Part shown: in pieces, positions 42,694 to 54,287 of the stretch
Layout: each line of letters starts with the position of its first letter
Position numbering within the stretch: the stretch's first letter is position 1
Assembly (NCBI GenBank): GCA_965207375.1
Contig: OZ242274.1
Span: 864,001 to 928,000 of the forward strand
Length of the DNA: 64,000 nt
Source of the DNA: Nitrosopumilaceae archaeon
Lineage (GTDB): Archaea > Thermoproteota > Nitrososphaeria > Nitrososphaerales > Nitrosopumilaceae
Direction of reading: 5' to 3'
Made by a program: the position numbers and the translations under genes
The notes under the pieces: generated by a model
The model's database searches: none
Seen by the model: the letters and a program-made list of their open reading frames with translations, nothing else
Told to the model about the DNA's origin: nothing

Positions 42694-42775
42694 GCTGTTT
42701 GTCCTCTTTTTTCCAATAAAACCCTTCTCACTTAAAGACAACAATTAAAATCCACACCCGATGTAATCCTTGTAT

Positions 42776-42849
42776 GGGCTGGTAGTATAGCCTGGTAGTA
42801 TACCCGCCTTGCACGCGGGGGGTCATGGGTTCAAATCCCGTCCAGTCCA
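42776..42849 (+). tRNA. tRNA-Ala(TGC)
   Basis: CCCGC-CT-TGC-AC-GCGGG; G3:U70 pair. Confidence 0.95.
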
Positions 42850-42933
42850 TTTCATATTTTACGCACAACGATCCTGCACCAAATTTGTGATTTCTGGATG
42901 GATTTAAATAGGATAAGTTGAACCAAATGTATT

Positions 42934-46532: not shown

Positions 46533-47924
46533 TTGCTATTGTCGCAGGTCTTTCATGACATTGAAAAAGAAATTATCAAGGCATTACAAGATTCTGGACA
46601 ATTAACTCCTGACAAACTTGAACAACAAACAGGCCTGTCTGCTGATCAAATAAGACGTGGTATAGAATGGCTCCGGCTCAAGGGCCTAGCAATTGTAGAT
46701 GAGACAAGTACAAAAACTGTTTCTTTGGGAAAAAACGGCATTGATGCATTAGAGCGAGGTCTTCCTGAGCGCAGACTGCTTGATTTAGTCAGGGCTGGCA
46801 CCTGCAAAATATCTGACCTGCAAAAGCAAATGCAATCACTTTTTGGCCCTGCCATGGGATTGGCAAGACAAAACAACTGGATTGAGACTAGCGGCAATGA
46901 GGTACATCTCAAGATGTATCCTGACAAATTAGCAGAAGAGCAAATTGTCTCACGTATAGGAAGAAACAAAATATCACCTGACTCTATCTCTGGCTCTCTT
47001 GATTCTATGAAAAAACGACCAGACTTTCTCATTGAAAATGTCTCAAAGTCCAAGACCATCAGCTTGGCTGACTCTGCCAAAAATCTAAATGTCAGTGATT
47101 CAGAGGGGGCAATTGATGTAGAGGCTACAGTTCCACTGACCCCACTTGCACGCAGACATCCGTTAAAGGAAACAATTGATGAGATTCGTGAAATCTTTGT
47201 CGCATTGGGTTTTACTGAAATTACAGGCAATCTTGCCCAGTCAAGTTTTTGGAATTTTGATGCACTGTTTACGCCACAGGATCACCCTGCACGAGAGATG
47301 CAAGACACCTTCTTTTTAGATAAAATTAACTCAAGACAAACCGGCACGCCGCAGCAAATAAAAAATGTGTCTACATCTCACAAAAAGGGCTGGAGGTACA
47401 TGTGGGATATCAGGCAAGCCCAAAAAATGGTTCTGCGAACCCATACTACTTGCGTTACAATCAAGCATCTTGCACAAAACAACTCCGAAGAAATTCGTGC
47501 ATTTTCCTTGGGCAGAGTTTTTAGAAATGAAAAGGTAAGCTACAAGCATCTAGTAGAGTTTACTCAGGTTGAAGGAATAGTTGCAGGCAAAAACGCGACA
47601 CTTCGGGATTTGATGGGAATCCAAAAAGAGTTTTACCGACGCATTGGAATAGACAAGGTAAAGTTTTGGCCCACATTTTTCCCATATACTGAACCGTCAT
47701 TGCAAACTATGGTGTACAATAAGAGACTGGACAAGTGGGTGGAGCTATTTGGAATGGGAATCTTTCGACCCGAGGTCACAAAACCATTGGGAATCAAAAG
47801 GCCAGTCTTGGCATGGGGCGGCGGAATTGAAAGAATTGCCATGTTAAAGTACGGATTAGATGACGTTCGCGAGTTTTACAACAACGATTTAGATTGGTTG
47901 AGGACTGTATCAAAATGCCAGTAG
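46533..47924 (+). CDS. pheS: Phenylalanine--tRNA ligase alpha subunit
   Basis: WNFDAL..PQDHPAR, LRTHTT, FPYTEPS. Confidence 0.96.
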   Translation: MLLSQVFHDIEKEIIKALQDSGQLTPDKLEQQTGLSADQIRRGIEWLRLKGLAIVDETSTKTVSLGKNGIDALERGLPERRLLDLVRAGTCKISDLQKQMQSLFGPAMGLARQNNWIETSGNEVHLKMYPDKLAEEQIVSRIGRNKISPDSISGSLDSMKKRPDFLIENVSKSKTISLADSAKNLNVSDSEGAIDVEATVPLTPLARRHPLKETIDEIREIFVALGFTEITGNLAQSSFWNFDALFTPQDHPAREMQDTFFLDKINSRQTGTPQQIKNVSTSHKKGWRYMWDIRQAQKMVLRTHTTCVTIKHLAQNNSEEIRAFSLGRVFRNEKVSYKHLVEFTQVEGIVAGKNATLRDLMGIQKEFYRRIGIDKVKFWPTFFPYTEPSLQTMVYNKRLDKWVELFGMGIFRPEVTKPLGIKRPVLAWGGGIERIAMLKYGLDDVREFYNNDLDWLRTVSKCQ

Positions 47925-49549
47925 TTGAGTTGAATCTTTTTAGATTGCAGAAATTATTGGGGGCAAAAGTTTCCAAAAAAGCAATCATTGAGACGCTGCC
48001 ATTTTTAGGATTAGACATAGAGTCTGAATCAAAAAGCAACATAAGGGTCGAATACAGCCCCAACCGGCCTGACTATTCTACTGATTACGGTATTGTCATG
48101 GGATTAGAGGGTTTACTGGGAATAAAAAAAGGAGGAATCAAACTAACCATAAAAAAATCCAACTATAAAATTGTGGCAAATTCTTCAGTATCTAAAATCC
48201 GCCCATATGTGACTGGCATATGTGCCAAGGGTGGCACCATAGATGAGGAGATGATAAAACAACTGATGAGTATGCAAGAAGACTTGCATTTTGGCATGGG
48301 CAGACGGCGAAAAAAATCCTCAATAGGAATTCATAATCTTGATGCTGTATCGTTTCCGTTGCGATACTGTGCATTGCCTAGAACTCACAAGTTTTGTCCC
48401 CTAAATGAAACAAAAACCATGACCGTAGATAAAATCCTGACAGATACTCAAACCGGCAGAGATTATGGCCATCTGCTTGGTTCCTCCAGACGGATTCCGA
48501 TGATTTTAGATTCTCAAGCAAAAACGGTGTCATTTCCACCCGTTATCAATTCCTCTGCAACTACAGTTACCACACAAACTAGGAATCTATTTGTGGAGGT
48601 AACTGGCATGAACAAAGACGACATTGAGGATGTCTTATCTGTAATTTCGGTCATTTTGCAAGGGGCAGGATTTACCCTGTACCAGGTAAAAATATCTGGA
48701 GCAAAAAACTCTACTCCGAAATTACTTGAGCAAAAACTCACACTTGATCCTAAAATGGTTTTAGATACTTTGGGATTGAACATATCTGATAATACAATTG
48801 TCTCCTGCCTGAAAAAATCTAGAATTGCAGCATCTTTATACCGCAAGAAAATCAGGTGTGTCATACCCCGGCATCGCTTTGATATTTTTGGCCCGATGGA
48901 TATTGTAGAAGAGGTTGCCTTGGGATACGGAATTGCAAAACTAGAACCAAAACTTTCACCATCCCAAACATTGGGCGAATCTAGCAGTATGGCCACAAAT
49001 TTGCGCATAATTGATGATGTGTTTGTAGGTCTGGGATATACCGAGGTTCTAAATTCTGGTCTTACTAGTAAGGGTGTGTTGTGTGATGCAACAAATCGTG
49101 ACTCTGAATTTGTATCAGTACTTGATTCAAAAAGCCAAGAGCATACAGTTCTCCGCAATTCTCTACTGCCTGGTATAGTCAAGAACCTTGCAGGCAACAT
49201 ACATAGGACGTATCCGCAAAAAATGTATGAGACAGGAACCGTGTTTTTGCCAGGCAAACCCATAGATGAGCAGATCAATTTAGCAGCAGTTCTAGCATAC
49301 GGGGACGCAAATTTTTCTGAATTAAAATCGGTTTTACAGTCTGCCCTCAAGGTTGGATTCAACTTTAACATCAAAACCAAGACATCCTCAGATCCACTTT
49401 TTGCAAGAGGCCGTGCTGCAGATGTATTAATTGATGGTGTACCAGTTGGCACAATTGGTGAGATCAATTCTAAAACACTACAATATTTTAAAATACGCGT
49501 ACCTGTGGTAGGTTTTGAAACAAAGCTAACTGGATTAATATTTGATTAA
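47915..49549 (+). CDS. pheT: Phenylalanine--tRNA ligase beta subunit
   Basis: MPVV start, PNRPD, RFDI...DIVEEVA..YG. Confidence 0.95.
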   Translation: MPVVELNLFRLQKLLGAKVSKKAIIETLPFLGLDIESESKSNIRVEYSPNRPDYSTDYGIVMGLEGLLGIKKGGIKLTIKKSNYKIVANSSVSKIRPYVTGICAKGGTIDEEMIKQLMSMQEDLHFGMGRRRKKSSIGIHNLDAVSFPLRYCALPRTHKFCPLNETKTMTVDKILTDTQTGRDYGHLLGSSRRIPMILDSQAKTVSFPPVINSSATTVTTQTRNLFVEVTGMNKDDIEDVLSVISVILQGAGFTLYQVKISGAKNSTPKLLEQKLTLDPKMVLDTLGLNISDNTIVSCLKKSRIAASLYRKKIRCVIPRHRFDIFGPMDIVEEVALGYGIAKLEPKLSPSQTLGESSSMATNLRIIDDVFVGLGYTEVLNSGLTSKGVLCDATNRDSEFVSVLDSKSQEHTVLRNSLLPGIVKNLAGNIHRTYPQKMYETGTVFLPGKPIDEQINLAAVLAYGDANFSELKSVLQSALKVGFNFNIKTKTSSDPLFARGRAADVLIDGVPVGTIGEINSKTLQYFKIRVPVVGFETKLTGLIFD

Positions 49550-49732
49550 TTACGCCTTCTAGTGCCCAAGAGCAATCACGCAGACGGATTAGGATGATGT
49601 AGATCGTATTGATTCCTGTGATTTCTAATTCACCCAGGCGTGGTACATTCGGGCAACCCCCGGTTAGAAAACCCAAGATAGGTTTAATGGCTAAAATACC
49701 GATGATCTTGTGCGAGTCAGAACCGGGGAACA
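49550..49732 (-). ncRNA. Unassigned structured RNA candidate
   Basis: GC-rich intergenic block with multiple long stems; G-U pairs favour the minus strand. Confidence 0.55.
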
Positions 49733-49777
49733 TTTTACATCAAAACAATTAAACACAAAAAAATTCTAAATTATTTC

Positions 49778-50197
49778 ATGGTAAATTACTGGCTGGCAAA
49801 GCAGGAACCTGACGGACCACGAGGTTATGATCTTGACCAGCTAAAATCTGATAAAAAAACTGCCTGGGATGGAGTACACAACAATCTTGCACTCAAACAC
49901 ATGAACAATATGAAAAAAGGCGATCTTATATTTTTTTATCATACCGGTAAACAGCGTGCAGCAGTAGGAATAATGGAAGTAATAAAAAATCCGTATCCCA
50001 ATCCTAAAGAGGACAATAAAAGATTCATAGTCGTTGATGTAAGGTATAGGGAACATCTAAAGAATCCGGTAACTCTTGAACAGATGAAAAAAGAATCAAA
50101 ACTCAAAGATTGGGAACTTTTACGCATCTCTAGGTTGTCTGTGATGCCGGTTCCCAAAGATATTTGGAACCACGTCCTTAAAATGTCTAAAAAATAG
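49778..50197 (+). CDS. EVE-domain protein
   Basis: YWLAKQEP, WDGVHN, MKKGD.IFFYH, SRLSVMPV. Confidence 0.9.
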   Translation: MVNYWLAKQEPDGPRGYDLDQLKSDKKTAWDGVHNNLALKHMNNMKKGDLIFFYHTGKQRAAVGIMEVIKNPYPNPKEDNKRFIVVDVRYREHLKNPVTLEQMKKESKLKDWELLRISRLSVMPVPKDIWNHVLKMSKK

Positions 50198-54132: not shown

Positions 54133-54287
54133 TGGGGCCGACCGGAATCGAACCGGCGACCTACGGGTCACTACAGCTCCAAACTCACATCATTTTTTCA
54201 TCAGTAGTTTGAATTTTAACCTCTGGAGCCCTTAGCGGTGATCTTTTTCGTAGACACTGTCGCCCTACCAGGCTAGGCTACGACCCC
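54133..54287 (-). tRNA. tRNA-Trp(CCA) with two introns (~54232-54258 in anticodon stem; ~54169-54222 at 37/38)
   Basis: Removing the inserts gives ACGGG-CT-CCA-GA-CCCGT; T arm GCCGG-TTCGATT-CCGGT. Confidence 0.85.

Follow-up and report, generated by a model that had tools for sequence, protein, structure and literature searches.

A probable two-hairpin box H/ACA guide sRNA downstream of pheT in ammonia-oxidising archaea

INTRODUCTION

What lies between pheT and the EVE gene in the genome of a Nitrosopumilaceae archaeon? In the stretch of 64,000 nucleotides analysed here (the window), pheT (47894–49549, plus strand) and the EVE gene (49778–50197, plus strand) are separated by 228 nt. A first-pass annotation placed in this gap a minus-strand structured RNA of a novel kind, with a possible pseudoknot and a possible role as RNP partner of the EVE protein. 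Our results instead point to a two-hairpin box H/ACA guide sRNA, encoded on the plus strand, for pseudouridylation of 23S rRNA; we assign this reading a probability of about 0.85, and infer from it transcription, RNP assembly and modification. The RNA is most likely a new representative of the well-known H/ACA class rather than a new kind of RNA.

Ammonia-oxidising archaea encode H/ACA proteins. Our searches of Rfam 15 revealed no described H/ACA guide RNA from them, and a full-text literature search, in which the slash in 'H/ACA' limits matching, returned no description of one. In the H/ACA sRNAs of Pyrococcus (Pab/Pf series, Pf9), one to three hairpins each comprise a lower stem, a pocket, an upper stem and a K-turn or K-loop and are followed by an ACA, with 14–16 nt between the target position and the ACA.

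RESULTS

A conserved two-domain RNA follows pheT

The gap contains a conserved two-domain structured RNA at approximately 49562–49736 on the plus strand. Of 24 other genomes from the family, 19 contain it by BLASTN at 72–86% identity, a level maintained between genera in which the pheT protein is just 44–63% identical. A covariance model matches 118 of 151 genomes across the order, representing 19 of its 20 families; in one family the matches comprised hairpin 2 only. The initial proposal that the gap encodes an unannotated ncRNA of thaumarchaeal type, conserved and built of two structured domains, therefore stands, as does its absence from known families: at gathering scores Rfam gives no match in the window, up to E=10 it gives only two chance C/D snoRNA matches (E 2–4) across 49350–49950, and none of its archaeal H/ACA families matches the RNA. 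The earlier observation that this is not a tRNA, RNase P or SRP RNA also holds, since ARAGORN predicts no tRNA at the locus and the RNase P and SRP RNAs are found elsewhere in the genome. A plus-strand C/D box RNA, suggested by a weak snoR12 match and by GAUGAUG and CUGA-like words, was rejected, since the position of its 'D box' takes part in a covarying base pair and four of 19 relatives lack the segment. A contig scan with the loose pattern CTGGGTG-N25-55-TCCGTCT gave, among the matches listed, chance matches in unrelated bacteria only, and the genome-wide pattern densities refer to patterns defined only after matches had been seen.

Alignment of the locus across genomes, which the first-pass annotation had proposed as a check, revealed covariation as well as conservation. 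Compensatory (double) changes occur in 30 of 34 modelled pairs of a 90-sequence alignment, whose pair counts are biased towards our own model because the alignment was fitted to it. In this alignment 90.6% of paired cells can form pairs, compared with 67.3% in shuffles, the observed values being reached in 0 of 500 shuffles; controls in which the model was slid gave 39–52%. An all-against-all listing of column covariation was too permissive to be informative. Folding energy for the whole region is not better than that of shuffled sequences on either strand (z −0.65 and −0.72). Hairpin 1 alone scores z −0.93, with a minimum free energy fold that differs from the comparative fold, and isolated hairpin 2 scores z −2.39, with a minimum free energy fold that recovers its upper stem. 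The support for RNA structure is comparative, not energetic.

Both hairpins have the architecture of box H/ACA guides

Each of the two hairpins consists of a lower stem, a pocket and an upper stem with a tandem-GA K-turn signature, and carries an ACA one base past the lower stem. The stems covary, and the pocket strands are near-invariant.

Hairpin 1 is enclosed, together with its ACA box, by an outer closing stem (GCCC at 49564–49567 with GGGC at 49651–49654), in which the two modelled pairs both show double changes (CG 65, UA 13, AU 4; and CG 39, UA 16, AU 9). Its lower stem, UCACGC (49576–49581) with GCGUGG (49638–49643), has compensatory changes in 6/6 pairs and 93.9% of cells paired. The 5′ pocket strand GACGG (49583–49587) is near-invariant, its columns across the order being G 70/76, A 75/76, C 72/76, G 71/75 and G 74/75. 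The upper stem (49589–49595 with 49622–49628) shows double changes in 8 of 9 modelled pairs and 94.5% of cells paired, with many G.U pairs. It leads to a K-turn or K-loop signature formed by GA at 49596–49597 (G 70/73, A 72/73) and UGA at 49619–49621 (U 74/74, G 73/74, A 73/74). Beyond this lies an apical hairpin, AUC-loop-GAU (49603–49613), with double changes in 3/3 pairs where it is present; four of 19 family sequences lack it, and the short variants carry a K-loop instead. The 3′ pocket strand UUC-ACCCAG (49629–49637) is again near-invariant (ACCCAG columns: A 72/75, C 74/75, C 74/75, C 73/75, A 74/76, G 60/76). ACA box 1, a hinge or H-like box, follows at 49645–49647 (A 77/78, C 76/78, A 79/79). 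In the free RNA, positions 49586–49588 are able to extend the upper stem downwards.

The lower stem of hairpin 2 pairs CCCCGGUU (49658–49665) with AACCGGGG (49721–49728); its five outer pairs are nearly invariant C-G/G-C and its inner pairs covary (GC 28, UA 16, UG 14, CG 10). The 5′ pocket strand is AGAAAA (49666–49671) in this genome, and column frequencies give the order consensus RAGAG. Double changes are seen in 6/6 modelled pairs of the upper stem (49672–49679 with 49705–49712). The probable K-turn combines a non-bulged strand A-GG (49680–49682; consensus GA-GG, with G 51/81, A 65/80, G 55/80 and G 71/80) and a bulged strand CC-GAU-GA (49699–49705; C 73/74, U 73/74, G 73/73, A 73/73), and this genome has a U in place of G at one of the K-turn GA positions. 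In both hairpins the K-turn or K-loop is recognised by its sequence signature only. The 3′ guide GAGUCAGA (49714–49721) is strongly conserved (UCAG 84/84, G 76/80, A 79/84), and ACA box 2 (49730–49732; A 88/90, C 83/90 with U in 7, A 90/90) forms the 3′ end.

This comparative structure retains some of the helices proposed initially and replaces others. The helix UCCCCGGUU/AACCGGGGG is the hairpin 2 lower stem, CAAGAU/AUCUUG its upper stem and UGCCC/GGGCA the outer closing stem. However, AAUCAC/GUGAUU and AGGA/UCCU are displaced by the covarying GCACGC/GCGUGC and an upper stem of 9–10 pairs, GACUC/GGGUU would connect two pocket strands and never varies, and the proposed pseudoknot ACGCCU/AGGCGU is present, among 18 family members, only in the copy from the window itself. 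The H/ACA class had not been considered, and its hallmarks (two ACA boxes, K-turn GA pairs, pockets and ACA spacing) argue against a novel kind of RNA.

In this genome, the distance from the top of the 3′ pocket strand to the ACA is 16 nt in each hairpin, and in both the tandem GA lies approximately seven pairs from the pocket. The hairpin 1 distance becomes 13 nt when measured from the last base paired with the peptidyl transferase centre (PTC). This pocket-to-ACA geometry fits the 'n+15' rule, by which about 14–16 nt lie between the guide base beside the target uridine and the ACA (PMC7075261).

The genome also encodes the expected protein partners. Cbf5 (368.4 bits), Nop10 (78.5 bits) and L7Ae (96.7 bits) all score above their cut-offs, and a Gar1-like ORF is a weak match at 25.7 bits, below the Pfam cut-off of 29.3. 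In the proposed mechanism, L7Ae would bind the upper-stem K-turn or K-loop and the PUA domain of Cbf5 would bind the ACA. Cbf5, Nop10, Gar1 and L7Ae would thus assemble on the sRNA, and pairing of the pockets with 23S rRNA would place the target uridine in the Cbf5 active site.

The pockets are predicted to target helix 69 and the PTC

The 3′ guide of hairpin 2, GAGUCAGA, forms eight contiguous pairs with UCUGACUC at 2023–2030 of the genome's own 23S rRNA, in helix 69, and its first G lies 16 nt before the ACA. The guide would engage the 3′ strand of that helix. In most families the 5′ pocket strand is complementary to CUCUU of helix 69; in this genome it offers only 2–4 pairs. Predicted targets are U2031 and/or U2029, for which the spacing to the ACA is 16 nt and 14 nt respectively; by our mapping these would correspond to E. 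coli 1923 and 1921. When all 16S and 23S uridines were scored, helix 69 was the best bipartite site for 52 of 85 homologues (U2029 in 19, U2025 in 17, U2031 in 16), and the helix 69 target is identical in 77 of 77 places among 71 genomes. For this genome alone the target scores of 26–27 are near the shuffle null median of 24–25 and below the 95% level of 30. A search for continuous duplexes with rRNA was non-discriminating, giving chance matches of 8–13 bp on both strands.

For hairpin 1, GACGG is complementary to CCGUC at 2694–2698 of the 23S rRNA and ACCCAG to CUGGGU at 2683–2688. The two pocket strands would pair with the flanks of the PTC segment UUUAGA, and the target would be U2689 or U2690. 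This arrangement is non-canonical, with 6 + 5 bp and five target bases unpaired instead of two. When 2–5 unpaired bases were allowed, 42 of 66 hairpin 1 homologues chose 23S 2689; under strict 'UN' geometry the commonest best site was 16S U1317 (32 of 66). Of 27 places with the PTC target, 26 are identical. In the one natural test case (genome G034), in which a C in the paired 23S segment has become A, the guide has no compensating change. It is most likely that hairpin 1 pairs, atypically, with the PTC segment, with 16S U1317 as the alternative. A further candidate, 16S 984–986 (GGUGGU...GGCCGUCG), was rejected because it uses upper-stem bases and fits poorly by inspection; in the run allowing gaps of 2–5 it was the top site for 14 of 66 hairpin 1 homologues and for none of those in family f1, this genome included.

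The non-significant scores in this genome, together with the atypical fit of hairpin 1 to the PTC and the preference for 16S U1317 under strict geometry, raise the question of whether the RNA is an H/ACA-type RNP scaffold that does not guide the predicted rRNA sites, being instead an orphan, a guide for another RNA (16S U1317 or a tRNA; the tRNA-Ala T-arm likewise carries UGGGU...CCGUC) or an rRNA-folding chaperone. We regard this as unlikely. Helix 69 is preferred by the majority of hairpin 2 homologues despite their differing 5′ pocket strands, and the PTC pairing, unlike that with 16S, draws on every near-invariant base of the hairpin 1 pocket (GACGG, ACCCA). Moreover, both 23S regions are described as H/ACA-guided sites in other archaea (PMC7075261, PMC11077068).

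The RNA is always adjacent to pheT and may have its own promoter

In all 19 family loci pheT adjoins the RNA, which begins ∼13 nt past the pheT stop codon on the same strand, and in other families the sequence upstream of the RNA reads as the pheT C-terminus, indicating the same arrangement. Co-transcription with pheT is possible, and such constancy would also be expected of a plus-strand cis element, either the 3′ UTR of the pheS-pheT operon or the 5′ leader or riboswitch of the downstream gene. This explanation is very improbable. The gene downstream of the RNA differs among family loci, no riboswitch family matches, and ACA boxes, K-turn signatures and rRNA-complementary pockets would have no role in a UTR.

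The flanking elements likewise argue against a cis element and for a separate gene. A TATA-like element read from the sequence, TTAATATT (49535–49542, plus strand), lies at promoter distance within the last pheT codons, 22 nt upstream of the outer stem, and T/A-rich boxes occur at a similar distance in relatives of several families (TTAATATT, TTTTTAG, TTTAATA, TTTATAA). It is a putative promoter of the sRNA itself. The element that the first-pass annotation placed upstream, TTTAATTG, cannot be the promoter of the sRNA because it is downstream of the plus-strand RNA. Directly after ACA box 2 there is a UUUU run (49733–49736), and T-runs are found within ∼15 nt past the ACA in many relatives; the run is likely to be an archaeal oligo-T terminator. 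The sRNA gene would be of ∼170–175 nt, extending on the plus strand from ∼49562 to ∼49735 directly after the pheT stop.

The plus strand is favoured by G.U pairs and strand-specific motifs

Watson-Crick helices pair equally well on both strands, and RNAalifold of the minus-strand alignment also recovers the main stems, so that the strand must be judged on other grounds. The novel minus-strand ncRNA proposed at the outset, with its pseudoknot and its suggested partnership with the EVE protein, was based partly on G-U pairs thought to form only on that strand. The 90-sequence alignment, fitted as noted to our plus-strand model, contains 346 G.U cells and 24 A.C cells when read on the plus strand; the minus-strand reading is disfavoured because the former would become A.C mismatches. 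The structure-free MAFFT alignment of 19 sequences agrees, with ∼40 G.U cells in the covarying upper stem of hairpin 1 that would be ∼40 A.C mismatches on the minus strand. Read on the minus strand, the small GGU/GCC hairpin would contain U.G pairs in 16 of the 19 sequences, although this helix is ambiguous at best. Both invariant triplets read ACA, and the pocket strands are complementary to rRNA, on the plus strand only. Of 19 family loci, 11 have an EVE gene next to the RNA and eight do not, whereas pheT is always present, and any link to the EVE protein is therefore weak. With the pseudoknot confined to a single family member, we give the minus-strand reading hardly any credence.

A small protein gene has a negligible probability: an 81-aa ORF (49488–49733, minus strand) and a 47-aa ORF (49609–49752, plus strand) exist mechanically, but the former has no Pfam family and contains the point (∼49563) at which conservation ends, and indels of 1, 2 and 14 nt distinguish the relatives, whose changes are paired and compensatory rather than in third codon positions.

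DISCUSSION

Our results provide a testable prediction, namely that two functional centres of 23S rRNA carry pseudouridines in an abundant microbial group, and use of the covariance model, with its matches throughout the order, would improve genome annotation. If the atypical PTC pocket is real, the known rules for Cbf5 substrates would be extended.

The stem-pocket-ACA layout is the same as in the Pyrococcus H/ACA sRNAs, to which the window RNA has no sequence relation. We know of no described H/ACA RNA, those of Pyrococcus included, in which an outer stem encloses a hairpin plus its own ACA.

Among known RNAs, Haloferax sR-h45 and Sulfolobus sR148 come closest. A tentative extension of the H/ACA reading, possible at best, is that the window RNA is the ammonia-oxidiser form of an ancient, pan-archaeal guide for helix 69 and the PTC, of the lineage of sR-h45 and sR148, adjacent to pheT and distinguished by a sliding 3′ hairpin and a non-canonical 5′ pocket. 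The guide would have been retained beside pheT in the order, with a promoter that overlaps the stop codon of pheT. Its 3′ hairpin might slide, by family, among U1917, U1921 and U1923 of the repetitive target ACUCUGACUCUCU, and its 5′ pocket might loop out the five PTC bases UUAGA, including U2585/U2586. Should this be correct, the five-base loop-out would represent a new substrate geometry for Cbf5.

As described, sR-h45 is an RNA of ∼200 nt with two H/ACA hairpins, K-turn G:A pairs in each and an ANA/ACA box about one unpaired base after each hairpin; its 5′ hairpin guides modification of a uridine of the PTC segment GGGUUUAG (Psi2605), and its 3′ hairpin, which tolerates more than two unpaired target bases, guides Psi1940/1942 of helix 69 (PMC7075261). 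Compared by description, the window RNA would have a like order, with the 5′ hairpin directed to the PTC and the 3′ hairpin to helix 69. There are, however, differences. The linker of sR-h45 is 56 nt and may form a pseudoknot, whereas that of the window RNA is ∼10 nt, pairs with the 5′ end and closes hairpin 1. The PTC guide of sR-h45 (SL1) is of the typical 'UN' type, and that of the window RNA leaves five bases unpaired. In helix 69, SL2 is reported to target loop uridines (E. coli 1915/1917), and the window guide fits the 3′ strand (1921/1923 by our mapping).

Sulfolobus islandicus sR148 is described as an atypical H/ACA RNA that guides U2060 (E. coli 1917) and U2066 (yeast 2266) of helix 69 and works essentially by one 3′ guide, whose duplex can be only 6 bp long (PMC11077068). 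Hairpin 2 of the window RNA is likewise dominated by its 3′ guide, of 8 bp, and its best target, U2031, is the equivalent of U2066, six bases past the equivalent of 1917. Unlike sR148, as far as its published description goes, the window RNA has classic lower stems, ACA boxes and a second hairpin.

A conserved gene at the 3′ side of pheT

In the window, 228 nt separate the pheT stop codon (gene at 47894–49549, plus strand; Pfam B5, B3_4 and beta-chain CLM domain) from the downstream EVE-domain gene (49778–50197, plus strand; Pfam EVE, E = 6e-41), and this gap holds a candidate two-hairpin RNA at about 49562–49736. The first-pass annotation had proposed an RNA gene here, and its conservation is borne out: BLASTN with a 241-nt query recovers the stretch in 19 of 24 further genomes belonging to this family, at 72–86% identity over ∼170 nt as against only 44–63% for the neighbouring pheT protein, and in no genome among 16 that represent other families in the order. 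Of 151 genomes drawn from the order as a whole, 118, belonging to 19 of 20 families, match a covariance model made from a plus-oriented MAFFT alignment and a hand-drawn structure, and so do all 23 sampled from the window's own family; 84 loci were gathered, and 90 matches were aligned to the model. The RNA lies directly 3′ of pheT in 19/19 family loci, whereas an EVE gene, whose product had been suggested as a partner, flanks it on the far side in only 11. The stretch is a real gene, conserved and unannotated, at the 3′ side of pheT. The model matches only the 3′ hairpin in family f15 (loci L186, L191, L195, L205, L210 and L211), the 5′ hairpin being missing or elsewhere, and in genus g29 (L196–L198, L201, L203 and L204) the hairpins are two separate adjacent matches with coordinate gaps of 0–46 nt and no long spacer.

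No Rfam 15 family matches the stretch at gathering scores; up to E = 10 only two chance C/D snoRNA matches appear (E 2–4). ARAGORN places no tRNA there, and the genome's RNase P and SRP RNAs are located elsewhere, outside the pheT–EVE gap. Mechanical ORFs over the RNA (81 aa on the minus strand, 47 aa on the plus) lack frame conservation, and the longer has no Pfam family.

On the plus strand the final codons of pheT include a TATA-like octamer, TTAATATT (49535–49542), which precedes the first stem by 22 nt; similar T/A boxes occur at about the same distance upstream in other families, and T-runs lie 3′ of the second ACA. This suggests an independent small gene with a putative terminator and a putative promoter overlapping the end of pheT, an overlap that would account for the constant gene order. 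Many family members preserve the nucleotide sequence of the box-containing 3′ end of pheT, stop codon included (49532–49549, GGATTAATATTTGAYTAA/G), which may serve both as coding sequence and as sRNA promoter. The element TTTAATTG, previously described as upstream of the RNA, is downstream of it on the plus strand.

Strand and covariation

Folded alone, the whole region gains no stability over its shuffles in either orientation (z = −0.65 and −0.72), and thermodynamics therefore lend no support. In isolation, hairpin 2 (the 3′ hairpin) folds by energy into an H/ACA shape (z = −2.39; matched by 4 of 200 shuffles), and hairpin 1 (the 5′ hairpin) does not (z = −0.93).

In structure-free MAFFT alignments, made in both minus and plus orientation, helices covary by eye, with GCACGC/GCGUGC changing to GCAUGC/GCAUGC, GCACAC/GUGUGC or CCGCGC/GCGCGG, and many positions that are A·C mismatches in the minus reading are G·U pairs in the plus reading, the upper stem of hairpin 1 alone contributing ∼40 such cells in 19 sequences. 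In the 90-match alignment, which is fitted to its own model so that pair counts are somewhat inflated, standard pairs fill 90.6% of cells (shuffles, 67.3%), both sides change in 30 of the 34 pairs, double-change cells number 603 against 186 expected, and G·U outnumbers A·C by 346 to 24 on the plus strand; the MAFFT alignment has the same pattern. None of 500 shuffles reaches any observed pairing measure, and sliding the partners by 1–3 columns lowers pairing to 39–52%. Because G·U so exceeds A·C in fitted and MAFFT alignments alike, we assign the RNA to the plus strand, contrary to the minus-strand reading of the first-pass annotation. From that reading the lower and upper stems of hairpin 2 and the outer stem are retained, while AAUCAC/GUGAUU and AGGA/UCCU give way to covarying alternatives, GACUC/GGGUU links two pocket strands and shows no variation at all, and the proposed pseudoknot is found in just one of 18 family members.

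A probable box H/ACA guide RNA

One base 3′ of each covarying stem stands an ACA box, conserved per base in 77/78, 76/78 and 79/79 sequences for the first and 88/90, 83/90 and 90/90 for the second. These stems close hairpins that open into a large internal loop, or pocket, with two nearly invariant strands (GACGG and ACCCA(G) in hairpin 1, (R)AGAG and GUCAGA in hairpin 2) that would pair with target RNA. The upper stem of each hairpin covaries strongly and is topped by a 5′-strand GA and a 3′-strand (A)UGA in 70–74 of 73–74 sequences, a predicted K-turn signature that a putative K-loop replaces in hairpin 1 of four short family variants. The distance from the top of the 3′ pocket strand to the ACA is 16 nt in both hairpins of the window's genome, with ∼7 pairs between pocket and tandem GA; this spacing is the geometry expected of archaeal box H/ACA guides, for which PMC7075261 quotes an 'n+15' rule. 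An unusual feature is an outer stem, GCCC/GGGC, which covaries and closes around both hairpin 1 and its ACA box. The genome encodes Cbf5 (368 bits), Nop10 (78.5 bits) and L7Ae (96.7 bits), as well as a Gar1-like ORF at 25.7 bits, under the Pfam cut-off of 29.3. Judged on sequence and covariation, the RNA is most likely a member of the known box H/ACA class and not a new kind of RNA.

Predicted rRNA targets

Each homologue was compared with every uridine of the window genome's own 16S and 23S rRNA to find its best bipartite site of H/ACA type, the 3′ arm being anchored 14–16 nt from the ACA. The best hairpin 2 site falls in helix 69 of 23S rRNA for 52 of 85 parsed homologues, at U2029 (19), U2025 (17) or U2031 (16); we take U2025, U2029 and U2031 to be E. 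coli 1917, 1921 and 1923 from alignment to the conserved UAAGGUAGC. The invariant GUCAGA(G) is complementary to CUCUGAC and, in several families, the 5′ strand (UU)AAGAG to CUCUU(AA). Members of the window's family have a weak 5′ arm (2–4 pairs) and a 3′ guide lengthened to GAGUCAGA, giving eight contiguous pairs with UCUGACUC (23S 2023–2030), so that the uridine beside the duplex would be U2031, with U2029 as the alternative. In loci L167–L176, L196–L198, L201, L203, L204 and L209, the pocket strands AGAGAGU (5′) and GGGUCAGA (3′) can pair with helix 69 segments that overlap, and the best-scoring target is U2025 (presumably E. coli 1917). These pairings suggest that the RNA binds in alternative registers or that its target differs from family to family. 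All 77 occurrences of the target sequence that were located, in 71 of 151 genomes, are identical, and CTCTGAC-N1-4-YCTT, a pattern set after the match was seen, has 22 matches in 8.6 Mb (both strands), one of them in rRNA. In this genome alone the best bipartite scores are 26–27, against a shuffle median of 24–25 and under the 95% level of 30. Helix 69 is the likely target of hairpin 2. The 23S genes of six sampled genomes (G163, G058, G151, G092, G132 and G158) are identical over the helix 69 pattern through UAAGGU(A) and then read AAA, AAG, ATT or GAC, which may mark an rRNA intron or insertion immediately 3′ of this point.

For hairpin 1, the strict 'UN' geometry favours 16S U1317 (GGUGAA-UA-CGUC), best for 32 of 66 homologues, over 23S U2063 (17 of 66). 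The 16S pairing leaves C81, A82 and G33 unexplained, whereas pairing with the peptidyl-transferase centre (PTC) takes up every near-invariant pocket base, ACCCAG being complementary to 23S 2683–2688 (CUGGGU) and GACGG to 2694–2698 (CCGUC); it leaves five bases unpaired, UUAGA (2689–2693), instead of two. When 2–5 unpaired bases are permitted, 42 of 66 homologues have their best site in the PTC. In Haloferax the third U of GGGUUUAG is Ψ2605, guided by sR-h45 (PMC7075261). Of 27 places with the PTC segment, 26 agree exactly, and the sole variant (a C to A change in genome G034) has no compensating change in its guide; here the 23S (G034:C37:39752–39777, locus L234) reads GAGAUGGGUUUAG for GAGCUGGGUUUAG, which may be a true variant or an assembly error. 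TGGGT-N2-7-CCGTC, likewise set after the match was seen, has 13 matches in 8.6 Mb (both strands), one in rRNA; both target patterns are rare genome-wide. For hairpin 1 the PTC is a plausible target, though one that we propose only tentatively. The T-arm of tRNA-Ala (42775–42850, plus strand; at ∼42826) also carries UGGGU-7 nt-CCGUC, two words complementary to hairpin 1, probably by chance.

Relation to described guide RNAs

In architecture the nearest described counterpart is Haloferax volcanii sR-h45 (PMC7075261), which is ∼200 nt long with K-turns, one ANA and one ACA box, a 5′ hairpin guiding a PTC uridine and a 3′ hairpin guiding helix 69. In contrast to sR-h45, the linker here is short and pairs with the 5′ end, the PTC pocket is atypical and the predicted helix 69 targets are displaced to the 3′ strand in the window's family. 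In predicted function hairpin 2 resembles Sulfolobus sR148: PMC11077068 describes S. islandicus 23S U2060 (E. coli 1917) and U2066 (yeast 2266) as pseudouridines, both sR148-dependent, with a 3′ guide only and a 6-bp duplex at U2066. This is a direct precedent for 3′-guide-dominated helix 69 targeting. Full-text searches over the main texts of openly available articles, combining H/ACA or Cbf5 with Thaumarchaeota or Nitrosopumilus, turned up no description of such guides. The RNA is useful for annotation and yields specific rRNA modification predictions for ammonia-oxidising archaea; all that is unusual about it is the PTC pocket, which may be non-canonical, and a helix 69 target that appears to slide from one family to another.

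Other observations

The window's genome has 4.30 Mb in 4 contigs (99.95% completeness, 0.06% contamination), compared with 0.8–3.2 Mb in sampled relatives of the same family. At 54133–54287 (minus strand) Rfam reports a 155-nt tRNA (39.6 bits, full model 1–71) that is absent from the ARAGORN output and is probably a tRNA gene with at least one long intron.
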